Source: Candidatus Saccharimonadota bacterium
Lineage (GTDB): Bacteria; Patescibacteriota; Saccharimonadia; Saccharimonadales; UBA4665
Length of the DNA: 32,000 nucleotides
NCBI GenBank assembly: GCA_002952755.1
Contig: CP025011.1
Span: 750,001 to 782,000 of the forward strand
Direction of reading: 5' to 3'
Numbering within the stretch: the first letter of the stretch is position 1; each line of letters opens with the position of its first letter. The position numbers and the translations under genes were made by a program. Under the pieces are notes generated by a model. The model ran no database searches. It had not been told where the DNA came from and saw only the letters and a program-made list of their open reading frames with translations. Of this stretch, positions 14,556-25,962 are shown in pieces.

Positions 14556-14831
14556 TTGTATCGCATGCAAGACGAGAATAGGCTCGCGGAACTCCGCGCT
14601 CAGATCGATGAAGTAGACGAAAAAATTGTTGCCCTGGTAAATGAACGAGCTCGACTCGCATTGCTAGCCGGCATCGCCAAGGGCAGTCGGGAGATTCGCC
14701 GTCCCGAACGTGAGACCGAGGTGTTGAAACGCATCAGCAAGATGAGCAAAGGGCCGCTATCTGATGAAGGTATACGCGAAATATTCCACACCATAATCGG
14801 TATTTGTCGAGCCATTCAATACAATAAGTAG
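14556..14831 (+). CDS. AroQ-class (type II) chorismate mutase, monofunctional
   Basis: 88-91 aa (TTG 14556 or ATG 14565). It aligns by eye with the E. coli PheA CM domain: LAELRAQIDEVDEKIVALVNERARLA, GIAKG, RPERETEVLKR, IFHTIIGICRAIQ. Counterparts of catalytic Arg11, Arg28, Lys39, Glu52 and Gln88 are all present. Confidence 0.75.
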   Translation: MYRMQDENRLAELRAQIDEVDEKIVALVNERARLALLAGIAKGSREIRRPERETEVLKRISKMSKGPLSDEGIREIFHTIIGICRAIQYNK

Positions 14832-16231: not shown

Positions 16232-16561
16232 ATGGTAGCAGAAGTAAAAAAAGATCAAAAACAGCGTATTCGTATCCGCCTCAAGGCCTACGACCACAAA
16301 GTAATAGATCAAGCCGCAAAACAGATCGTTGATACTGCGCTGCGCACCGGCGCTACCATTGCTGGCCCTATTCCACTGCCTACCGACCGTAGCACTTTTA
16401 CGGTTATCAAGTCCCCCCACGTATTCAAGAAGGGGCGTGAGCAATTCGAGATGCGCGTACACAAGCGTTTGATTGACGTGACTGATCCAACGCCAAAGAC
16501 CATCGACTCACTCATGAACTTGAGCCTGCCCGCTGGTTGCGACGTCGAAATCAAGATGTAA
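16232..16561 (+). CDS. rpsJ: 30S ribosomal protein S10
   Basis: 109 aa with an S10-like sequence ([24 protein letters not shown]...[23 protein letters not shown]). Confidence 0.97.
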
Positions 16562-16575
16562 ATCTTCTGTCCTAT

Positions 16576-16613
16576 AAAAAATAAACCGCCTATAAAGAAG
16601 CGGTTTATTTTTT
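16576..16613. terminator. intrinsic (bidirectional-type) terminator directly after rpsJ
   Basis: AAAAAATAAACCGC - 10-nt loop - GCGGTTTATTTTTT. This is a perfect 14-bp stem with an A-tract on one side and a T-tract on the other. Confidence 0.75.
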
Positions 16614-16678
16614 ATATTAGGCCAACGCATTTAGTTGAACGATTAGAATCGTAGCGAGTGTAGTGATATCATCTAAGG

Positions 16679-17461
16679 ATGTCAGAATTCGATTCGAATG
16701 TCCCAGATGCGGCAAGAAGCGCTTTTCGCACAACCTTACACCGAGAGCGGGGTAAGCGAAGAGCGGCAGGATTTATGATAGGTTCGGTGGCGTTTGCCGG
16801 AGAAGGGGACGCACTCATATGCGTGGATGAATGTACTCCGAAAAATCCACCCCGCCTACGTTTTCCACGTTACATGGTAACCATAGGTGCCATAGGAGAC
16901 TTTGGAAAGGAAAACATTGAAGGGGCGGTCATCACCCATGTAACGCCTAATCATACGCTGGACGGCTGGAGCAAATACAGCCTACCCCTGCCATACGCTC
17001 TACCGTGGTCCAAGATAGCTCGAGCGCAAGGATTGTATAGAGAAGTTGCTTTATCGGCGAAGTATAAGTACGGCGAGATGGCGTCTCCTGCCTTACACGG
17101 CATAGCGTCAGAGTATTATAAGCTCTATGAGCGGGGCGGTCTGCTGTACGACCTAGGGGAGCAGCCTTATAGAGAAGAGTTGTGCGAAGGCATGTCGCCG
17201 CATATGGCATCCGCCTTAGGGCCAGCGCAAGACAACCTGGCGAGCACATTAGAAGAAGTTGCCGCCCAGCTGCGCAGATCACCGGAAGCCATACTAGACG
17301 CATGGCCACTTAGTGAGGGCCCGCTTTTTCGTAAGGGAAAGCCGAGCTATGACGGCGTAAGACTCGAGTGGACGACCGACTTTTCGGGAGCGACCTTGGC
17401 TGGCTTAGGGGTGCAGCCGATAGACCCTCAGCCGTGGTTCCGTCCTAATGCACGTTCATAA
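16679..17461 (+). CDS. hypothetical protein (260 aa), no recognisable domain
   Basis: Long ORF in the rpsJ|rplC island. AAGG sits immediately upstream of the ATG. I recognise no motif. Confidence 0.55.
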   Translation: MSEFDSNVPDAARSAFRTTLHRERGKRRAAGFMIGSVAFAGEGDALICVDECTPKNPPRLRFPRYMVTIGAIGDFGKENIEGAVITHVTPNHTLDGWSKYSLPLPYALPWSKIARAQGLYREVALSAKYKYGEMASPALHGIASEYYKLYERGGLLYDLGEQPYREELCEGMSPHMASALGPAQDNLASTLEEVAAQLRRSPEAILDAWPLSEGPLFRKGKPSYDGVRLEWTTDFSGATLAGLGVQPIDPQPWFRPNARS

Positions 17462-17535
17462 TGTGGAGCGATTTTAATTGTCTCGCTCGTATTCAACACT
17501 GCCCAGGAAGCGGATAACTAGATTGGAGATGATGT

Positions 17536-18087
17536 ATGATGAAGTCGCCAGAATTAATCGTGTTTGTTAACGAAGACGGAGTTCCCACCGGTGAGACCGG
17601 ACCAAAGCTCGAGAGTCATACCGCATACACAAGGCTACATCTCGCTTTTTCGTGTTACATTTTCAGGCGCAGCGATAAAAAATTCCTACTGACACAGCGG
17701 GCCCTTAGTAAGAAAGTCTGGCCTGGGGTTTGGACAAATAGTGTCTGCGGACACCCGCAGCCTGGCGAAGCCACCGTGGATGCAATTCGTCGACGCGCCG
17801 CTTTCGAGCTCGGCATGCACGATTTCCAGGACATTACGCCGATATTGCCGAAGTATCGCTACACAACTCCGGAATATAACGGCATTATTGAAAACGAATT
17901 CTGTCCTGTTTACCTAGCCTACACGAACGCAGAGCCAGAGCCGAATCCCGATGAGGTCGAAGCGTACCAATGGGTTAGCTGGCAAGATTACAAGCACCTT
18001 TTAGCATCTAAGCCAGACATTATGAGTTACTGGGCCAAGGATCAATATGTACAGCTCAAAGACCTTGCACCATTTGATACGCTCTAG
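17536..18087 (+). CDS. idi: isopentenyl-diphosphate delta-isomerase, type 1 (Nudix fold)
   Basis: 183 aa, collinear with E. coli Idi. Shared blocks: HTAYTRLHLAFS (His25/His32 equivalents), RALSKKVWPGVWTNSVCGHPQ (Cys67/His69), IENEFCPVY (Glu114/Glu116). SD GGAG lies upstream. Confidence 0.9.
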   Translation: MMKSPELIVFVNEDGVPTGETGPKLESHTAYTRLHLAFSCYIFRRSDKKFLLTQRALSKKVWPGVWTNSVCGHPQPGEATVDAIRRRAAFELGMHDFQDITPILPKYRYTTPEYNGIIENEFCPVYLAYTNAEPEPNPDEVEAYQWVSWQDYKHLLASKPDIMSYWAKDQYVQLKDLAPFDTL

Positions 18088-18111
18088 ACGCACTGCCGAA
18101 ATGTGCATTGC

Positions 18112-18140
18112 TTGTGGTGAGATAACACGCAAGGTATACT
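18112..18140 (+). promoter_or_regulatory. candidate promoter TTGTGG-17 nt-TATACT
   Basis: The -10 ends 8 nt before ATG 18149, which is leaderless geometry. Confidence 0.35.
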
Positions 18141-18148
18141 AAGCGCTA

Positions 18149-18427
18149 ATGACAAAAACAAAAAAGAAAAACAGCCCAAGGCGGCGAGAGCTGGATGGTG
18201 TTTTCTTATTAAAGTTGGTGTTGTATGTGCTGCTAGGGTCGATGTGGCTCAAAATCAGCCATGGAGACATGGTTCGCCTACCGATCCCCATCGGATTGGC
18301 CATGGGCTTGGTTTTTACGAGTCATGAACATTTCCAAATCGACCGTAAAATTGAATACGCCGTGCTGCTTATAGCTATGCTCATAGGCTATCTTGCCCCA
18401 TACGGCCTGTACATATATCTAAACTAG
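18149..18427 (+). CDS. small membrane protein (92 aa)
   Basis: K/R-rich N-terminus followed by hydrophobic helices (VFLLKLVLYVLLGSMWL, IPIGLAMGLVFT, YAVLLIAMLIGYLAPYGLYIYL). Confidence 0.55.
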   Translation: MTKTKKKNSPRRRELDGVFLLKLVLYVLLGSMWLKISHGDMVRLPIPIGLAMGLVFTSHEHFQIDRKIEYAVLLIAMLIGYLAPYGLYIYLN

Positions 18428-19018
18428 CTACATATCCGGCATTTCGTCTGAGATCATCTCCTGGACAGTTTTCTTAAACTCGGCTAGTACTGCCGAAGGG
18501 CGAAGTATTGACGGGTACCACAAGTGCACTATTGTTTCGCCGATTGGAGCTACTTTGCTTTCGACTACAGTACTAAATTGACAAACGGCTAGCGGCAGAG
18601 GGGGTCTTTCCCGTTTTGCGTCTGCGATGGCGAGACGGACTGGCTTTACTGGGGAAAGCATACGTTCGTACGCTTCCCAAGCATTTTTGGTCGCTGGTGA
18701 GACTCTGTCTAATGCTGCTCGACCAATACTTGCACCCAAGATCATCTTTCTCATCCTTGCCGCTTCTTGCGCAACGACCTCTGGATTATCTTCCTGCGTA
18801 ATAGTAATTGCAGTGTAGTATCTATCAAATTCAGGATCTGCTCCTGGCCAATAAAATGCCGCTGAGCAGTGGTCTAATTGAATATCTGGATCATAAGCGT
18901 CTGTTACCCCAGGCTCGCTGTTACTGAGCGCGATATTTGAGTAATCGGAGTCATGAGACAAGCCTTCTAATATATAAAGACTACGCTCGCTCTGGTAGGG
19001 ATATTCTGAATTGGCCAT
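18428..19018 (-). CDS. hypothetical protein (196 aa), the only minus-strand gene in the window
   Basis: I prefer ATG 19018 (MANSEYPYQ...) over the track TTG 19093. A perfect TATAAT on the minus strand at 19037-19032 lies 13 nt upstream. No recognisable domain. Confidence 0.5.
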   Translation of the reverse strand: MANSEYPYQSERSLYILEGLSHDSDYSNIALSNSEPGVTDAYDPDIQLDHCSAAFYWPGADPEFDRYYTAITITQEDNPEVVAQEAARMRKMILGASIGRAALDRVSPATKNAWEAYERMLSPVKPVRLAIADAKRERPPLPLAVCQFSTVVESKVAPIGETIVHLWYPSILRPSAVLAEFKKTVQEMISDEMPDM

Positions 19019-19086
19019 GAAAAACCTTATTATTATACGTTCGCAAAGAAAAATCACTCTAACGTCAGTGTAGAATTGTCTACACA

Positions 19087-19115
19087 TTGACAAGGGAAGA
19101 TATCTCTGTTACGAT
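19087..19115 (+). promoter_or_regulatory. rplC-operon promoter TTGACA-17 nt-TACGAT with extended -10 TG
   Basis: Consensus -35 at 19087-19092 and TGTTACGAT at 19107-19115. A ~150-nt leader precedes rplC. Confidence 0.55.
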
Positions 19116-19273
19116 GTATTGGTATATCAAATACCTGTACTTGGTGATTTGAGCAGGTCGCTCTTAACAGAGGCGAAACCACTCGGAGCCGAGCGTTTTT
19201 ATACTCGTGAAGTTATAAAAGGTGAGGCGGCAGGATAAGGATGCGGACTACCATGTGTCCGTATGGAGTCACT

Positions 19274-19894
19274 ATGAAAGCACTCATTACCCGAAAGGTA
19301 GGCATGACCAGCACCATCGCAGAAGATGGCGTTGTTACTGCTATTACCTTGCTTTCCGCTAGTCCCTGCGTTATTACGCAGGTCAAAACCGCAGATCCAG
19401 ACGGCTACACCGCCGTGCAGATCGGTTTTGAAGAAGCAAAAAAGCAAAACGTTAACAAGGCGCAAGCTGGTCATTTCGCGAAGGCCGGCGAGATTATGCC
19501 AAAAATTATTCGCGAGTTCCGCGTCGACGAAATCACTGAAGACCTCAAGGTTGGAGAAACGATCAACCCCGAGGTCTTTTCAATTGGTGACGAAATCGAC
19601 GTAACGGGCACCAGCAAAGGTAAAGGTTGGGCCGGCACTATTAAGCGTCACAACTTCCACCGCGGCCGCAAGACCCACGGTGGCCGGTCGTACCGCCGTC
19701 CTGGTTCTATTGGCTCTATGTACCCTCAGAAGATTTTCAAGGGTAAGAAGATGGCTGGCCACATGGGCGCTGAGCAAGTCACCGTCAAGAATTTGAAGGT
19801 TGCACTCGTCGATACTGAGCTGGGTGTCATCGGCGTTACCGGTGCAGTGCCTGGCCCACGCAACGGCATTGTCATCATTAAGGAGGCCAAGTAA
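19274..19894 (+). CDS. rplC: 50S ribosomal protein L3
   Basis: MKALITRKVGMTS matches the usual L3 N-terminus. GGAG lies 7 nt upstream. The track start at 19241 was rejected. Confidence 0.95.
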   Translation: MKALITRKVGMTSTIAEDGVVTAITLLSASPCVITQVKTADPDGYTAVQIGFEEAKKQNVNKAQAGHFAKAGEIMPKIIREFRVDEITEDLKVGETINPEVFSIGDEIDVTGTSKGKGWAGTIKRHNFHRGRKTHGGRSYRRPGSIGSMYPQKIFKGKKMAGHMGAEQVTVKNLKVALVDTELGVIGVTGAVPGPRNGIVIIKEAK

Positions 19895-19896
19895 TG
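19876..19896 (+). repeat. 21-bp direct repeat, left copy (rplC 3' end / SD / TAATG)
   Basis: CATTAAGGAGGCCAAGTAATG is identical to 19992-20012. Confidence 0.95.
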
Positions 19897-20010
19897 TTTG
19901 CCGCAGCTATAAGGGAAAAGAGCAGCCAGAGCAACCGAATTTACTTCGGTTCCCTGCGCGATGAGAAAAACCGTAGGTTTGTCTTATGTGCCATTAAGGA
20001 GGCCAAGTAA
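19894..20010 (+). repeat. junction insert element copy 1 (~116 bp) carrying a 38-codon mini-ORF
   Basis: ATG overlaps the rplC stop and TAA overlaps the rplD ATG. Peptide: MFAAAIREKSSQSNRIYFGSLRDEKNRRFVLCAIKEAK. Shares conserved blocks with 25005-25121. Internal hairpins at 19933-19951 and 19963-19985. Confidence 0.7.
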
Positions 20011-20012
20011 TG
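19992..20012 (+). repeat. 21-bp direct repeat, right copy
   Basis: CATTAAGGAGGCCAAGTAATG is identical to 19876-19896. Confidence 0.95.
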
Positions 20013-20660
20013 GCTGCTACAACTACCGTGCCGACCTTCACGAAGAGCGGTGCTAAAGCAACAACCGCTGCCAAGCTCGACGCCGGCGTCTTTGCGATTA
20101 TGCCAGAAAACCACGAGCTTCTGAAGCTCGCCTACACCGCATACCTCGCAAACGGCCGCGACAACTTGGCGCAAACCAAAACCCGCGGCCTGGTGAGTGG
20201 TGGCGGCAAGAAACCCTGGAAGCAAAAGGGCACTGGCCGCGCACGCTTCGGCTCTACCCGTAACCCTATTTGGCGTGGCGGCGGTGTCGCCTTTGGGCCC
20301 ACCGGCAACGAAAATTACTCCGTTAAGGTAAACGTCAACGCCAAGCGCCAAGCATTGCGCCAAGCGCTCAGTCTCTCGGCCAGCGAAAGCCGAGTGTGCG
20401 TTATCGAAACTTTCGAATGCAAAGAAGGTAAGATTTCCCAAACCGCCAAGCTGCTCGACAAGGTCGGCGCCAAAGGCAGCGTGCTCATCGTCGTAGATCA
20501 CAAAGATGATCTAGCCGTACGTGCTACCAACAACCTGCCTAAGGTAAAGGTAGTACAAGCCAATTACCTCAATGTGTATGATGTCTTAAATGCCGATACT
20601 GTCCTGATCAGCGAAAAGTCACTAGCCATCATTAGCGAGTGGCTCGGAGGTACTAAGTAA
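20010..20660 (+). CDS. rplD: 50S ribosomal protein L4
   Basis: 216 aa with KKPWKQKGTGRARFGSTRNPIWRGGGVAFGP. Confidence 0.97.
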   Translation: MAATTTVPTFTKSGAKATTAAKLDAGVFAIMPENHELLKLAYTAYLANGRDNLAQTKTRGLVSGGGKKPWKQKGTGRARFGSTRNPIWRGGGVAFGPTGNENYSVKVNVNAKRQALRQALSLSASESRVCVIETFECKEGKISQTAKLLDKVGAKGSVLIVVDHKDDLAVRATNNLPKVKVVQANYLNVYDVLNADTVLISEKSLAIISEWLGGTK

Positions 20661-21010
20661 TGGACAAGACTACTGTATTGAAGCCACGGCTGAGCGAAAA
20701 GACCTTTGGTCTTGCCCAATCGCGCACCGTATACGTCTTTGACGTGCCTACCGATGTTAACAAGCACACCGTTGCGGCAGCTGTTGCAACTCAATTTGAT
20801 GTCACGGTTATGGCCGTCAACATCGTGAACAGCAAGGGTAAGAAGACTCGTCTGGCTCGCAAGAACGGCCGCGCCATCACAGGACGACGTTCTGACACCA
20901 AGAAAGCCTACGTTACCCTTAAGGAAGGCCAAAAACTTCCATTCTTCGATGAGCCTGAAACCGACAAGAAAGCCGACAAAAAGGCTGCGAAGAAAGAGGA
21001 GAAGAAGTAA
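20660..21010 (+). CDS. rplW: 50S ribosomal protein L23 (with Lys-rich C-terminal tail)
   Basis: L23-like core (VLKPRLSEKT...YVFDV) plus the tail DEPETDKKADKKAAKKEEKK. TAATG overlaps on both sides. Confidence 0.93.
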   Translation: MDKTTVLKPRLSEKTFGLAQSRTVYVFDVPTDVNKHTVAAAVATQFDVTVMAVNIVNSKGKKTRLARKNGRAITGRRSDTKKAYVTLKEGQKLPFFDEPETDKKADKKAAKKEEKK

Positions 21011-21846
21011 TGGCTCTCAAACAATATAACCCCACGACCCCCGGTCGTCGTGGCATGACCAGCCAGGACACCAGCGAAATCACAACCAAGAAACCGCTGC
21101 GCTCCTTGCTCGTCCACAAGCGCGTCCAGAACGGCCGCAACAACCAAGGCCGCATTACCACCAGGCACAAGGGTGGCGGTGTCCGCCGCTTCTATCGTAT
21201 TATGAACTTTAACCTCGCTGAAGGCGTCACCGCCGTCATCGAGCACATCGAATACGACCCAAATCGCAGTGCCCGCATTGCTCGCATTAAAGAAAACAAC
21301 GGCACGTACCACTACATCCTCGCTGCCAAAGATATGAAGGTTGGCCAGACCATTACGAGCGGCGAAGAAGCACCTATCGAGAATGGTAATCGTTTGCCAA
21401 TCAAGAATATCCCTATCGGCAGTACCATCCACGCCATCGAGATGAAGCCTGGCCGCGGTGCCCAAATGGTACGCAGCGCCGGTAACGGTGCTCAGTTGAT
21501 GGCCAAAGAGGGCGACTACGCCCAAGTGCGTCTGCCGAGCGGCGAAGTTCGCTTGGTGCGCCTGGAATGCACCGCCAGTATTGGCGTTGTTGGCAACGAG
21601 CAGCACCAAAACATCAAGATCGGTAAGGCCGGCCGCAAGCGCCACATGGGCGTTCGTCCAACCGTTCGTGGTGTGGTTATGAATGCTGTTGACCACCCCC
21701 ACGGTGGTGGTGACGGTGGCCGTCACCGCATGGCAAAAGCGCCCCGTACGCCTTGGGGCCAAAAGACTCTGGGTTACAAAACGCGCCGCCGCAAGTCTAC
21801 ATCGCAGTTCATTGTTAAAAGCCGTCATGCGGCGAAGAGGAAGTAG
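21010..21846 (+). CDS. rplB: 50S ribosomal protein L2
   Basis: 278 aa with RGVVMNAVDHPHGGGDG. Confidence 0.97.
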   Translation: MALKQYNPTTPGRRGMTSQDTSEITTKKPLRSLLVHKRVQNGRNNQGRITTRHKGGGVRRFYRIMNFNLAEGVTAVIEHIEYDPNRSARIARIKENNGTYHYILAAKDMKVGQTITSGEEAPIENGNRLPIKNIPIGSTIHAIEMKPGRGAQMVRSAGNGAQLMAKEGDYAQVRLPSGEVRLVRLECTASIGVVGNEQHQNIKIGKAGRKRHMGVRPTVRGVVMNAVDHPHGGGDGGRHRMAKAPRTPWGQKTLGYKTRRRKSTSQFIVKSRHAAKRK

Positions 21847-21850
21847 CGAT

Positions 21851-22081
21851 ATGACGAATCCTACAGAATTACCCAATAAACACGTCGATAGGGAATTTGT
21901 AACCGGGCTCGTCGGACAGCAAGTGGCTGCTAACTTAGCAGAGCTTGCTCGTCCGCCCCACGACCCGGTGCAGGGTTTTCGAGATCGGGGTTTACCTGAA
22001 ATTGCGCCGAATGTTTTTTCCGGTTTTGGTGGTTTAGTAATAATAGATTTTAATACCAGGACAGCAGGAGAATCCCTATGA
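21851..22081 (+). CDS. small hypothetical protein (76 aa) inserted between rplB and rpsS
   Basis: ATG lies 4 nt after the rplB stop. Its TGA overlaps the rpsS ATG (ATGA at 22078-22081). Peptide: [77 protein letters not shown] recognise no family. Confidence 0.45.
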
Positions 22082-22354: not shown

Positions 22355-22732
22355 ATGAGCGTACAAGCAATTGCCAAAGGCGTTCGTATGAGCCCGCGCA
22401 AGGTTGGCGTCGTTGCTAGCCTGGTCCGCGGCCGCACCGTTGCCGACGCTTTGACTATTCTGGAACACACGCCCCGCCGTACGGCACTGCCTGTTTCCAA
22501 GACGATTAAAAGCGCACAGGCCAATGCCGACCACAATCACAATCTCAAGCCAGATACGCTTCGAATTGTAGAAATCAGCGTCACTCCAGGGCCACGCCTG
22601 AAGCGCTATCGCCCAGCCGCCCACGGCCGTGCGCTGCCATTTATGCGCCGCACCAGCCACATTCGCGTAGTCGTTGATGGCGAGGCGCGCGTTGCCAAGA
22701 AACCAGTCAAGACCGAAGAGGAGAAGAAGTAA
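22355..22732 (+). CDS. rplV: 50S ribosomal protein L22
   Basis: MSVQAIAKGVRMSPRKV is a typical L22 N-terminus. I prefer ATG 22355 over GTG 22343. C-terminal tail KKPVKTEEEKK. Confidence 0.93.
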   Translation: MSVQAIAKGVRMSPRKVGVVASLVRGRTVADALTILEHTPRRTALPVSKTIKSAQANADHNHNLKPDTLRIVEISVTPGPRLKRYRPAAHGRALPFMRRTSHIRVVVDGEARVAKKPVKTEEEKK

Positions 22733-23361
22733 TGGGCCAGAAAGTTAACCCTATTAGCATGCGCCTCCAAGTCAATAAGAACTGGCGCAGCAAATGGTTT
22801 GTCAATAAGCGTGAATATGCCTCTTATTTGGCGCAAGATCTCGCTGTTCGCCGCATGATCAAGAATAAGTTGGGCTCCCGGGCCGCCATTAACAAAGTAG
22901 ATATTGAGCGTTCGCCAAATCTCGTCACCGTCACCATTACTACGGCAAAGGCAGGTGTCGTGATCGGTCGTGGCGGTTCTGGCGCAACTGAGCTAAAGCA
23001 AACTATTGAAAAGATCTACGGCGTTCCCGCTCGCGTGAACATCGAAGAGATCAAGAAGCCGGAACTCTTTGCTAAATTAGTCGCCGAGAATATTGCCCAC
23101 CAAATCGAACGCCGCATGAGCTTCCGCCGTGCCATTAAAGCGGGCGCTGCCAATACCATGCGTGCCGGTGCCAAGGGCATTCGTATCGAAGTATCCGGCC
23201 GGTTAAACGGTGCCGAGATGAGCCGCCGCGAGAAGGAAGTGCAGGGCTCTGTGCCACTTCACACTATTCGTGCTGATATCGACTACGCGCAAGTAGACGC
23301 CCGATTCCCAGGTTCCGGCATCATCGGCGTTAAGGTGTGGATTTACAAGGGAGAAGCATAA
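22732..23361 (+). CDS. rpsC: 30S ribosomal protein S3
   Basis: 209 aa with [12 protein letters not shown] and a KH domain GVVIGRGG. Confidence 0.97.
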
Positions 23362-23779: not shown

Positions 23780-23976
23780 AAGTAGCTGATATCCGTAAAT
23801 TGTCGACAAGCGAATTGGCTACTCAAAGTACCAAGCTTCGCGAAGAAATTGTCGAGTTAAAGCGCCGTTTGAGTATGGGTGAAGTCCAAAACGTCCGCGT
23901 AATCCGCGGCAAGCGTAAAGACCTCGCCCGTATGCTGACTGTATTAAGCGAACAATTATCAAAGGAGACTAAGTAA
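23776..23976 (+). CDS. rpmC: 50S ribosomal protein L29
   Basis: 66 aa, L29-like ([19 protein letters not shown]). ATGA overlap with rplP. Confidence 0.93.
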
Positions 23977-24284
23977 TGGCAAAAACTATTACCGGCATCG
24001 TCTCTTCGAAGAAGACCGACAAAACCATTGTCGTGACTGAGCACGAGCGCATGACTCATCCGCTGTATCGCAAGCAGTACACGGTGACCAAAAAGTTCAT
24101 GGCTCACGATGAGAAGAACGAGGCCCAAGAAGGCGACCGTGTGATGATTGGCGAAACTCGTCCACTCAGCACTCGCAAGCACCACACTCTCATCCGCGTA
24201 CTAGAGAAGGCAGGCGTAAAGCATGTTGAACCTGAAGTCGCTAAACCTGCGAAGGCAGACAAGGAAGTAGGGGAGACGGCGTAA
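23976..24284 (+). CDS. rpsQ: 30S ribosomal protein S17
   Basis: 102 aa. [14 protein letters not shown]...[16 protein letters not shown], plus a C-terminal extension. Confidence 0.95.
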
Positions 24285-24654: not shown

Positions 24655-25005
24655 ATGAGCACTAAGAATAAAATCGAAGACAAGATTTATAAAATCCGTC
24701 TCAATAAAGGCGATACCGTCGTAGTGACCGCCGGCAAATATAAAGGCAAAACCGGCACTATTACCGCTACTCATCCACGCGAGAACAAGGTGACTGTCGA
24801 AGGTATTAACATCGTCAAAAAGGCCGTGAAGCCCACACGGACTAACCCCCAAGGCGGTATTATCGAAATCACCAAGCCGATGTGGGTAAGCAAGGTAGCG
24901 ATTGTAGAGCCGACGAGCAAGAAGCCAAGCCGTATCGGCTATTCGATTGCTGCAGATGGCACGAAGACGCGCGTCTTTAAGAAAACCGGAAAGGCGATTA
25001 AATGA
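24655..25005 (+). CDS. rplX: 50S ribosomal protein L24
   Basis: 116 aa with a KOW motif (KGDTVVVTAGKYKGKTG). Confidence 0.95.
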   Translation: MSTKNKIEDKIYKIRLNKGDTVVVTAGKYKGKTGTITATHPRENKVTVEGINIVKKAVKPTRTNPQGGIIEITKPMWVSKVAIVEPTSKKPSRIGYSIAADGTKTRVFKKTGKAIK

Positions 25006-25121
25006 TGATTACGATGCTGAGGGAAAAAGAGCAGCGCCGGTTCGCCGTAGGCGAATGCAGCTTAGCTGCAAGGCGCAATGAGAAAAAACCGCTAGGTTTT
25101 GTCTCATGGGAGGTTAAGTAA
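25005..25121 (+). repeat. junction insert element copy 2 (~116 bp) carrying a 38-codon mini-ORF
   Basis: ATG (25005, or in-frame ATG 25002) overlaps the rplX TGA and TAA overlaps the rplE ATG. Peptide: MITMLREKEQRRFAVGECSLAARRNEKKPLGFVSWEVK. Shares conserved blocks with copy 1. Hairpins at 25041-25055, 25057-25069 and 25080-25105. Confidence 0.7.
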
Positions 25122-25693
25122 TGGCTACTGCAACAATCAAACCAACGGTGCGCCTGCGCGACCAGTACAACAAGGTTATCGCCGGCGAACTCAAAAAGGA
25201 GCTGGAGATTGCTAATCCGCACGAGGTTCCCCGTCTATTGAAGATCACCATTAACGTTGGACTTGGCAAGGCTAAGGACGACAAAAAGATGCTTGAAGCG
25301 GCTACAAACACACTGCGCAAGATTACTGGACAGCAGCCTGTTGAGACCATTGCCAAGAAGTCTATCGCCGCCTTTAAGTTGCGCGAAGGCAACAAAATCG
25401 GCCTCAAAGTCACCCTCCGCGGCGACAAGATGTACGAATTTTTGGATCGTTTGATCACTCTCGTGCTGCCGCGCTTACGCGACTTCCACGGCGTCAGCGC
25501 CAAAGCCTTCGACCGCCAGGGCAATTTCAGCCTCGGTCTCATCGACCAGTCAGTCTTCCCAGAACTAACCTTCGAAGAGACAACGACCGCACATGGTCTA
25601 CAGGCTGTCTTCACCATTAACAGCAAGAGTCCGGCACACTCACGACGACTTCTCGAGAGTTTCGGTATGCCGTTCGAAAAGGAGAGCAAGTAA
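25121..25693 (+). CDS. rplE: 50S ribosomal protein L5
   Basis: 190 aa with an L5-like sequence ([12 protein letters not shown]...[10 protein letters not shown]-like [17 protein letters not shown]). Confidence 0.97.
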
Positions 25694-25962
25694 TGGCTCG
25701 TAAGTCAAACATCGCTCGTGATAAAAAACGCGAGAAACTATATGCCAAGTATGCCGTCAAGCGTGCCGAGTTGAAGGAGCTGGGTGACCTCGAAGGTCTC
25801 GCCAAGCTACCACGCAACTCCTCGCCGACGCGCCGCAAGAACCGCTGTATCGAAACTGGCCGCCCCCGTGGCTACATGCGCCAATTCGGTCTCTCACGTT
25901 TGTCGTTCCGTGAGCAAGCAGTCCAGGGTAACATTCCGGGCGTAACAAAGGCCAGCTGGTAG
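25693..25962 (+). CDS. rpsN: 30S ribosomal protein S14 (long, non-zinc form)
   Basis: 89 aa. [12 protein letters not shown]...[13 protein letters not shown]...IPGVTKASW. It has a single Cys, so no CxxC zinc ribbon. Confidence 0.95.

Follow-up and report, generated by a model that had tools for sequence, protein, structure and literature searches.

A mobile structured element with a candidate triple-helix fold at ribosomal-protein gene junctions and stable-RNA genes of Saccharibacteria

The stretch of DNA analysed here, referred to as the window, comprises 32,000 nucleotides of a Candidatus Saccharimonadota genome (contig CP025011.1, positions 750,001 to 782,000 of the forward strand). It contains rpoB, rpoC, rpsL, rpsG, fusA, tuf and rpsJ together with the S10/spc ribosomal-protein genes (Saccharibacteria, TM7). 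Two gene junctions in this cluster, rplC/rplD and rplX/rplE, carry a short insert. Both inserts are copies of an interspersed, mobile and structure-constrained element of about 76-90 nt that is common in Saccharibacteria, and which is apparently undescribed and widespread. We consider it probable that selection acts on a putative triplex fold of this element, and that in coupled operons its insertion is bridged by a small open reading frame (ORF), termed here a mini-ORF.

Two inserts in a ribosomal-protein gene cluster

The relatives of the L4 protein encoded in the window come solely from Candidatus Saccharibacteria/Saccharimonadales genomes, with a best identity of 85%, and an identical L4 was found on Logan metagenome contigs that likewise bear the first insert. 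At most ribosomal-protein gene boundaries of the window a near-identical junction motif, AAGGAG-N3-AAGTAATGGC, is present, for example at 20994-21016, 22716-22738, 23960-23994 and 25677-25711 (window repeat families D1 and D2), and the stop codon overlaps the next start codon as TAATG. Because such overlaps are found at most junctions, the genes of the operon are tightly coupled in translation. The two interrupted spacers, of about 115 nt each against a usual length of about 0-20 nt, are the longest among 80 (rplC/rplD) and 47 (rplX/rplE) Saccharibacteria loci, respectively.

An initial annotation of the window had drawn attention to the hairpin at the 3' end of both inserts, and direct reading of the sequence bears out its description. 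Copy 1 reads GAGAAAAACC-GTA-GGTTTGTCTT at 19963-19985 and copy 2 reads GAGAAAAAACC-GCTA-GGTTTTGTCTC at 25080-25105, the latter being longer by an A in the left arm, a T in the right arm and a base in the loop. A single A.G mismatch is found in both. The central stems (19933-19951 in copy 1; GCGCC/GGCGC, 25034-25076, in copy 2) and the 38-codon frames open through both inserts (19894-20010 and 25005-25121, or 39 codons from the ATG at 25002) are likewise as it described them. Absent from that annotation were a third strand that covaries with the hairpin, a 21-bp piece of the host junction, CATTAAGGAGGCCAAGTAATG, that stands as a perfect direct repeat on either side of copy 1, and the membership of both inserts in a large family. 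Both stems gain two further pairs (AT...AT), reaching 19961-19987 and 25078-25107, and the isolated hairpins are considerably more stable than shuffled sequences (copy 1, z = -3.3, 0 of 200 shuffles as stable; copy 2, z = -4.1, 1 of 200). The copy 1 22-mer occurs once in the window, with 0 chance matches expected, and the 5' motif common to both copies, AGGGAAAAGAGCAGC, is restricted within the window to the two inserts. A filter-free search of the window with a covariance model (CM) of the element recovered just these two copies. The features of both are collected in Table 1.

Table 1. Features of the two element copies and of the genes that flank them (window coordinates; MFE, minimum free energy)
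Feature	Position	Strand	Remarks
rplC (L3), gene 5' of copy 1	19241..19894	+	NCBIfam TIGR03625, E = 8.7e-75
Left 21-bp repeat CATTAAGGAGGCCAAGTAATG	19876..19896	+	Contains Shine-Dalgarno sequence, rplC stop and mini-ORF ATG; repeat family D3
Mini-ORF 1, 38 codons (MFAAAIREKSSQSNRIYFGSLRDEKNRRFVLCAIKEAK)	19894..20010	+	TAATG overlap at each end; without NCBIfam match
Element copy 1, rplC/rplD	19908..19991	+	CM R1 89.9 bits, E = 6e-26; nhmmer E = 2e-21
Copy 1 5' purine segment AAGGGAAAAGAG	19911..19922	+	Candidate third strand mirroring the purine arm of the 3' hairpin
Copy 1 variable central hairpin	19927..19956	+	CAGAG/CCCTG with A.C mismatch, then AACCGAA-TTTAC-TTCGGTT
Copy 1 3' hairpin (P3)	19961..19987	+	ATGAGAAAAACC-GTA-GGTTTGTCTTAT; A.G mismatch, one G.T pair
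Right 21-bp repeat	19992..20012	+	Contains rplD Shine-Dalgarno sequence, mini-ORF stop and rplD ATG
rplD (L4), gene 3' of copy 1	20010..20660	+	NCBIfam TIGR03953, E = 1.8e-59
rplX (L24), gene 5' of copy 2	24655..25005	+	NCBIfam TIGR01079
Mini-ORF 2, 39 codons from ATG 25002 / 38 from 25005	25002..25121	+	Overlaps rplX stop (ATGA/TGATG); ends as TAATG at the rplE start
Element copy 2, rplX/rplE	25017..25111	+	Variant with two-hairpin central domain; CM R1 43.7 bits, E = 6e-12; nhmmer E = 4e-15
Copy 2 5' purine segment AGGGAAAAAGAG	25020..25031	+	One A more than copy 1, in step with the longer P3
Copy 2 central domain	25034..25076	+	GCGCC...GGCGC around two hairpins; MFE -43 kcal/mol, z = -3.8
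Copy 2 3' hairpin (P3)	25078..25107	+	ATGAGAAAAAACC-GCTA-GGTTTTGTCTCAT
rplE (L5), gene 3' of copy 2	25121..25693	+	NCBIfam NF000585, E = 2.1e-68

Family size, paired structure and a covarying third strand

Metagenome contigs from JGI were searched with the seed pattern AAAGAGCAGC N25-55 AGAAAA N5-13 TTTGTCT, which gave at least 119 matching stretches, and a hidden Markov model (HMM; nhmmer) and the covariance model R1 were then run on the collected loci. The HMM returned 141 matches and the CM 127, with at least 134 distinct copies in 118 loci. Where element-bearing loci include ribosomal-protein genes, these match named Saccharibacteria loci at 76-91% protein identity, and the family therefore ranges at least across the Saccharibacteria. 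A copy is present at 5 of 81 Saccharibacteria ribosomal-protein loci. Rfam 15 gave 0 matches in the window at the gathering threshold, its matches on 20 element-bearing loci were limited to rRNA, tRNA and one group I intron, and at E values up to 10 copy 1 produced chance-level matches alone, all of at most 14 bits. The element belongs to none of the Rfam 15 families, including the hammerhead, twister, twister-sister, pistol, hatchet and HDV-like ribozymes and the ribosomal-protein leaders, and literature searches brought up no description of the motif.

A phage origin was considered and rejected, the lone match on a viral contig (L204) being a chance match to the pattern without motif or hairpin. 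Among 2 Mb of loci, the search for an autonomous version or for orphan halves yielded only one truncated copy, L101:1237-1297, together with two copies of minimal form. The minimal copies (L146:1048-1143, L162:1435-1530, - strand) have a GAAG loop in place of the central hairpin and lie directly before the 23S gene. Their modules are rearranged, with the usual CGAAUUUAYUUCG hairpin located about 25 nt upstream instead.

Written in the strand sense of its neighbours, the consensus is (A)AGGGAAAAGAG-CAGC-(variable hairpin)-CGCG-AUGAGAAAAACC-GUA-GGUUUGUCUCAU, followed by a weak preference for UA.C. From 5' to 3' it has four parts: a purine segment with CAGC, the central hairpin or hairpins, a CGCG linker, and the 3' hairpin P3, whose A.G mismatch is present in 117 copies. 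In many copies that precede coding genes, a small hairpin with a GAAG loop stands before the start codon. The central domain consists of one hairpin in most copies and of two in some, including copy 2 of the window; it occurs in at least six unrelated sequence types, which always pair. Its sequence varies freely yet in a compensatory manner, and an A.C mismatch is usually kept. The outer stem has the form C-N-G-A-G...C-C-N'-G, in which N and N' covary (CG 62, GC 37, AU 14) and the conserved A faces C in 60 copies. A compensatory change from A-T to G-C is present in the central stem of the copy in L005.

The extent of pairing was assessed in an alignment of 127 copies. Because it was fitted to the CM, this alignment favours the structure; within it 97.6% of the cells at paired positions are paired, and changes on both sides are seen in 14 of the 15 pairs. 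None of 500 shuffles attained the observed pairing, and slid controls fell to 32-61% paired. Variation is found also at the outermost P3 pairs (AU 94, UA 13, GC 3 for one; UA 96, CG 11, AU 4 for the other) and at the apical pair (CG 102, AU 16), and this variation cannot be explained as an alignment artefact. Selection on secondary structure, which the initial annotation had proposed from the paired indels of two copies, is strongly supported by these results.

The two window copies are one each of two family-wide length alleles. The lengths of the A-run and T-run of the P3 arms are (5,3) in 91 copies and (6,4) in 34, with discordance in 7 of 132, and the A-run of the 5' segment contains 4 A with the (5,3) arms and 5 A with the (6,4) arms, in concordance in 125 of 132 copies. 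Both alleles are seen within all six central-hairpin types. With either allele the loop mostly has 3 nt and in a minority of copies 4 nt, and the usual difference between alleles is +2 nt, not +3. The initial annotation had suggested that the three indels, which sum to three, restore the reading frame. The family as a whole does not behave in this way: the loop varies in length independently of the arms, the sum of three is peculiar to copy 2, and the reading frame through the hairpin also differs among copies.

The 5' purine segment shifts in length together with the hairpin because it mirrors the purine arm of P3: GAGAAAAGGG, when read 3' to 5', repeats GAGAAAAACC. When the segment is set against P3 with the A.G mismatch left out of the register, A stands over A-T pairs in 615 of 631 cells, and G over G-C pairs in 233 of 241. 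An intramolecular purine-motif triplex is characteristically marked by a mirror purine repeat with its complementary pyrimidine strand alongside. The order of the segments (reverse-Hoogsteen, purine and pyrimidine strands), the antiparallel course of the third strand relative to the purine strand, and the triplets, A(T)·A-T and G·G-C, are those of class I in the sense of Holder et al. (2015).

Divergent copies recovered by the CM only (L140:1164-1238, L012:4699-4775, L192:172-281, L084:2593-2690, L119:1871-1952 and L183:1827-1905) alter all three strands jointly. The 5' segment, purine arm and pyrimidine arm are, respectively, GGGGAGAG, GAGAGAGG and CCCCUCUC in L140; AGGGGUGAG, GAGAGGGGA and UCCCAUCUC in L012, where one T lies over an A-T pair; GGAAAGGAGAG, GAGAGGAAAACC and GGUUUGCCUCUC in both L192 and L084; and GGGAAGAG, GAGAAACCCC and GGGGUGUCUC in L119. 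In L183, GAG has become AAG in both the 5' segment and the purine arm, and CUC has become CUU in the pyrimidine arm. The mirror match of the 5' segment is 7/8 in L140, 8/9 in L012 and 10/11 in L192, and the direct match 3/8, 3/9 and 4/11, respectively. A Watson-Crick switch helix between the 5' segment and the 3' arm of P3 is excluded, since the segment repeats the purine arm in mirror image and not directly. Taken as sequence evidence, these patterns incline us slightly towards the view that the three strands form an intramolecular triple helix.

A different feature was noted upstream of the purine segment in about 15% of copies (for example L090, L185, L140, L200, L135, L162 and, in the window, 19903-19926), where GCAGCUC or GUAGCUC is found. 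This sequence is complementary to GAGCAGC and might form an optional helix, P0, that would enclose the purine segment as a hairpin loop and be a rival to the triplex.

Insertion sites, mobility and translational coupling

In 38 copies the setting is a tRNA 5' leader, on the same strand as the tRNA and before genes of 15 isotypes. The distance from the end of the element to the tRNA is 3-18 nt, in most cases 6-10 nt. The opposite orientation is seen in just one or two copies adjacent to a tRNA, and copies found solely in a trailer number none to at most one. Of the tRNA copies, 59% have a strong sigma-70-like site no more than 70 nt upstream, versus 10% of background windows. These promoter-like sites lie at variable distance, and the element therefore belongs to the transcribed leader and does not itself constitute the promoter; a conserved -35/-10 at a fixed distance upstream of the element was absent (information at most 0.17 bit per position).

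Copies are found also in and around rRNA genes. When insertion sites were mapped with element-masked queries to the E. coli 23S numbering, intra-23S copies were located at ~1704/1769 (H63) in six loci, at ~1160/1186-1223 (H45) in three (L197, L108 and L150), at ~345/370 in three and at ~541/553 (H25) in two (L116 and L089), and one antisense copy was located at ~2207-2223. Within the block inserted into the 23S gene the element is at the 3' side, and the 23S sequence resumes 5-50 nt later. The 23S 5' leader holds other copies, some are placed immediately ahead of the 23S 5' end (L146, L162), and some precede the 5S gene by about 13 nt (L142, L197). A single 5-kb contig, L089, contains one rRNA operon with four copies, two in the 23S leader, one at H25 and one at H63, all with different central hairpins. 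One 23S rRNA gene that bears the element also contains a group I intron (L121:1796-2054). Further sites are upstream of coding genes, in 5' untranslated regions (UTRs) and at operon junctions. Orientation beside stable-RNA genes is about 56 sense versus 5 antisense, and beside coding genes it is mixed. The element has colonised the transcribed spacers of highly expressed genes.

Mobility is apparent from the comparison of related loci. The rplC/rplD junction is empty in the related species represented by L004, L006 and L007, where a single uninterrupted junction motif is found without an insert. In L005, a copy with 95% identity to copy 1 is located at another junction, rplD/rplW, though its L4 is 77% identical to that of the window; L037 has a copy at rplC/rplD with a different central hairpin, and L028 and L012 bear further copies. 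Direct repeats of host sequence, 12-42 bp in length, flank about 17-20 copies, as against 2 of 268 mismatched controls. Such repeats accompany about 15% of copies, vary in length and often begin 5-25 nt outside the core.

Six loci (L100, L129, L138, L143, L186 and L198) have in common a long flanking direct repeat, CCCCAGAAGCACCCGGC..GCAAATATAGC..TTCCAT. In reverse complement it corresponds to the 5' end of an oppositely oriented gene, to which the element is antisense, and the start of this gene is apparently duplicated. The repeated junction motifs of ribosomal-protein operons could, for their part, serve as short homologies that spread an element which they flank. The element is not a miniature inverted-repeat transposable element (MITE): its two ends, AAGGGAAAAGAGCAGCC (5') and ...GGTTTGTCTCAT (3'), are not reverse complements of each other, its inverted repeats are internal only, and in place of a fixed short target-site duplication there are repeats of 12-42 bp at about 15% of copies only.

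The relation of the element to translation was examined among copies that follow an ORF of 70 aa or more at a distance of up to 27 nt. Where such a copy is followed by a coding gene, in 14 of 14 cases an ATG at the upstream stop, either overlapping it (ATGA, TAATG) or placed 1-6 nt beyond it, opens a frame through the element, while among copies followed by a tRNA a coupled ORF is found in 0 of 4. By chance, 0.53 of frames would on average be open through the core. The mini-ORF ends as TAATG at the downstream ATG in 10 cases and as ATGA in 2; in L130 and L190 it stops just short of the downstream ATG, by 1 and 5 nt, respectively, and in L086 it runs past. The peptides are of 28-41 aa and share residues only where the same conserved nucleotides are read in the same frame, and several are read in other frames. 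A small protein gene was rejected as an explanation, given that the ORF is present at operon junctions only, that frames and lengths differ and that there is no NCBIfam match, and a functional peptide is unlikely, despite the calling of mini-ORF 1 as a 38-aa gene in contigs of the same species (L001, L002). Since the peptides are not conserved, the constraint is that of an open, coupled frame, a property of the insertion site and not of the element. The initial annotation had inferred a coding or coupling constraint from frame preservation: its coupling part stands, in dependence on context, its peptide part does not, and with more than 100 copies lacking any ORF the frame is not a general feature of the family.

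Several other peculiarities of the window were recorded. The spacer of 231 nt between rplB (ends 21846) and rpsS (starts 22078) is a second kind of insert, unrelated to the element (21847-22081). It contains a 76-codon ORF that starts with the ATG at 21851 and whose stop overlaps the rpsS start as ATGA; this ORF corresponds to a gene call of 76 aa in L001 and is without a Pfam match or likeness to the element. The canonical S10 operon is split, with a gap of about 2.7 kb (16562-19240) between rpsJ (S10, 16232-16561) and rplC. Four non-ribosomal ORFs are found in this gap, encoding an unknown protein of 260 aa, a NUDIX hydrolase (17536-18087), an unknown protein of 92 aa and, on the opposite strand, one of 221 aa. 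A chorismate mutase type II gene (14556-14831; Pfam CM_2, E = 1.7e-19) is located between fusA and tuf.

A proposed three-strand fold and its alternatives

In the explanation that we prefer, the three-strand triplex fold would be the object under selection. The sense strand would adopt a class I purine-motif triplex, and its complement could equally adopt a T·A-T / C+·G-C triplex. In tightly coupled operons, an insertion would survive where a translated mini-ORF bridges the upstream stop and the downstream start, accompanied at copy 1 by a duplicated Shine-Dalgarno/stop/start junction, and this bridge would keep the translational coupling of rplD and rplE. We lean, if not strongly, to the view that the element is essentially selfish or neutral and that its fold is kept for spread, for harmlessness in host transcripts, or for both.

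Whether such a fold acts as RNA or as DNA is a question on which the observations divide. For RNA are the transcription of the element, its sense orientation 5' of functional RNAs and the presence of sense-strand G.U pairs in P3 of 12 copies; the orientation bias could also result from selection against a terminator-like antisense strand. For DNA are the scarcity of G.U pairs in the central stems (18 of 1298), otherwise perfect hairpins with conserved mismatches such as characterize single-stranded-DNA recombination sites, the flanking duplications and the antisense position of some copies relative to coding genes. Purine-motif triplexes are, moreover, reported not to form in RNA (PMC4666352). 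A test of strand preference is ambiguous, as the conserved A.C makes the minus strand fold better in 102 of 119 central domains owing to that single position. Tentatively, and with the balance of our judgement somewhat against it, the element might represent a new class of natural intramolecular triple-helix nucleic acid, either an RNA with an extended purine·purine-pyrimidine triplex that would serve as a modular device in the 5' leaders of tRNAs, rRNA fragments and ribosomal-protein cistrons (a self-cleaving or processing signal, or an exonuclease block) or a single-stranded DNA triplex with hairpin that would be recognised by a novel mechanism of transposition into transcribed leaders.

A number of points weigh against the preferred explanation. 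The seed pattern used on the metagenomes demands the conserved motifs, and the apparent conservation is inflated by it. The third-strand base is G over C-G pairs in 201 of 210 cells, which corresponds to no canonical triplet, and the complementary strand fits a pyrimidine-motif (T·A-T / C+·G-C) triplex equally well. The mirror rule leans largely on conserved positions and on about 8-10 variant haplotypes, and the two length alleles could be ancient linked haplotypes between which the central hairpins alone have been swapped. As to mobility, no transposase, terminal inverted repeats or fixed-length target duplication was found in locus pieces of 5-20 kb, on which no transposase census was made. 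Finally, transcription of the element is clear and its placement strongly favours the 5' side of functional RNAs, a bias that a pure selfish-DNA model does not predict, and copies of the same genome, such as the four in L089, diverge in the central hairpin and keep the 5' segment and P3. The latter pattern resembles purifying selection on each copy and hints at a function at the level of the host.

The most serious rival is a cis-acting RNA module beneficial to the host, with a compact triplex-capped fold and with mobility as a secondary trait; it would serve as a processing signal, be a self-cleaving ribozyme of a new kind, or stabilise the 5' end against 5'-to-3' exonuclease. The placement of copies on the 5' side of tRNAs, with 38 in leaders against none to one in a trailer only, just before 23S and 5S, and at the 3' side of the inserted block in 23S would suit such a module. 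The same applies to the position within the transcript implied by upstream promoter-like sites at variable distance, to the sense bias near stable-RNA genes, to the G.U pairs of P3 in 12 copies and to the retention of conserved segments in L089. Conserved unpaired nucleotides with variable stems in many copies are typical of small ribozymes. Nonetheless, we regard this alternative as unlikely. The searches against Rfam and known ribozymes gave no match even at E values up to 10, G.U pairs in the central stems are rarer than is usual under selection at the RNA level, and several copies are antisense to flanking coding genes. In addition, the 5' maturation of tRNAs is already served by RNase P, the 5 of 81 ribosomal-protein loci with a copy indicate that the element is not essential there, and no stable purine-motif triplex is known from RNA (PMC4666352).

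Two narrower explanations were also weighed. Taken literally, the reading given in the initial annotation would have an RNA hairpin combined with a conserved 38-codon frame, possibly a small peptide, and indels selected because they sum to three. Both window ORFs are of 38 codons, mini-ORFs occur at all 14 operon-junction copies, and 11 of the 14 share the frame that yields ...REKSS...RDEKNR...; the nucleotides behind these residues are, however, equally conserved in the more than 100 copies without ORFs, in tRNA leaders and inside 23S genes. As other frames are used for parts of the element in L037, L190 and copy 2, as ORFs range from 28 to 41 aa, as loop length is independent of the arms (usually +2 nt) and as no peptide family is matched, we hold this to be very improbable. 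We give still less credence to a local regulator of the operon, be it a terminator or attenuator, an internal promoter, or an autoregulatory leader of L4 or L5. L4 autoregulates the S10 operon in E. coli, and the copies are placed directly upstream of rplD and rplE. Neither copy, however, has a promoter-like or terminator-like site on the + strand, P3 is without a following T-run, and neither shows the G+C-rich stem and T-run on the transcribed strand that define a Rho-independent terminator; the sole terminator-like pattern is antisense to copy 2 (25047-25032, - strand). The same element is moreover found before tRNAs of 15 isotypes and inside 23S genes, and it is absent from these junctions in sister species. 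A boxA-like antitermination site was rejected, as GCTCTTTT is present on the antisense strand only.

Among known systems, the BoxC and TM-ECO repeats of bacteria form intrastrand triplexes and have been linked to genome instability (Holder et al. 2015, PMC4666352). In the same classification, the order third strand, purine, pyrimidine defines class I, and TM-ECO belongs to class II, is G/C-rich with loops of 3-6 nt, and is always intergenic without strand bias (PMC4666352). Like these repeats, the present element is short and interspersed, has three segments on one strand suited to a purine-motif triplex (A·A-T, G·G-C) with conserved stems and variable loops, and its flanking duplications are comparable to the instability reported for them. 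Unlike TM-ECO it is A-rich and of class I, its first 'loop' is a covarying hairpin of 30-45 nt, an A.G mismatch lies in the duplex, there is no sequence similarity, its orientation in transcribed leaders is strongly sense, and it occurs inside 23S genes and translated mini-ORFs. The ITxF search, which allows loops of 1-6 nt, would miss it, for the first connector consists of CAGC, the hairpin of 30-45 nt and CGCGAU; only in the minimal copies (L146:1088-1143, L162:1435-1490) is it shortened, to CAGCGAAGCGAU.

The rRNA insertions of Saccharibacteria have been described as short in 64 of 66 cases, as neither introns nor ORF-bearing, and as suggestive of intervening sequences (IVS) (Tsurumaki et al. 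2024, PMC11270868). The positions of the element inside 23S match these short, unexplained insertions (PMC11270868), and copies of the family occupy the classical IVS sites H25 (~541/553) and H45 (~1160/1186-1223) in addition to H63 and ~345/370. Classical IVS are confined to rRNA and have a long stem cut by RNase III; the element, by contrast, is found also in tRNA leaders, 5' UTRs and operon junctions and has a conserved fold of its own, and the two window copies lie between protein genes and not at H25 or H45.

Small non-autonomous structured repeats in transcribed intergenic regions of operons include ERIC, REP/BIME, RUP/BOX, Correia and Rickettsia palindromic elements, the last of which are tolerated in reading frames by staying in frame. 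This tolerance is analogous to the bridging by mini-ORFs, although here a coupled ORF of its own is formed and no host protein is extended. In contrast to these repeats, the element lacks terminal inverted repeats, and its architecture is that of a three-strand mirror, not of a simple palindrome; it lies in rRNA genes and is tightly associated with the 5' side of tRNAs. The ends of IS200/IS605, PATEs, REP-RAYT and integron attC sites are imperfect hairpins with conserved mismatched or extrahelical bases and strand-specific orientation. The element resembles such single-stranded-DNA sites in its imperfect hairpin, few G.T pairs, conserved ends and variable middle, and differs in long and variable flanking duplications, in transcribed leaders as targets and in that no transposase or integrase was identified, no census having been made. 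It has one conserved 3' hairpin and no conserved 5' hairpin, as compared with PATE and REP-RAYT of the IS200/IS605 type, and its orientation is sense near stable-RNA genes and mixed near coding genes. In natural RNA triple helices (ENE/MALAT1, telomerase, riboswitch pseudoknots) the triplexes are of the U·A-U / C+·G-C type in the major groove. The predicted docking of a single strand along a Watson-Crick helix with base-specific covariation is common to these and to the element, the transcribed strand of which would however need A·A-U / G·G-C triples. In RNA such triples are known only singly, the tRNA core being one example, and a helix of 8-10 layers built from them is not known.

Saccharibacteria and other members of the candidate phyla radiation (CPR) have tiny, gene-dense genomes, and the short insertions in their rRNA genes have been catalogued without an explanation. 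A single structured element links these rRNA insertions with many tRNA leaders and with the odd 'hypothetical 38-aa genes' of ribosomal-protein operons, and a covariance model is available for its annotation. The mini-ORFs should not be annotated as proteins; they offer a clear example from nature in which reading through a mini-ORF would rescue translational coupling. The copies within 23S genes are relevant to the rRNA-based detection of Saccharibacteria. The covariation of three strands amounts to a testable prediction of a natural intramolecular triplex which, if true, would represent a fold new among RNAs or else a structure of DNA connected with mobility and genome instability.

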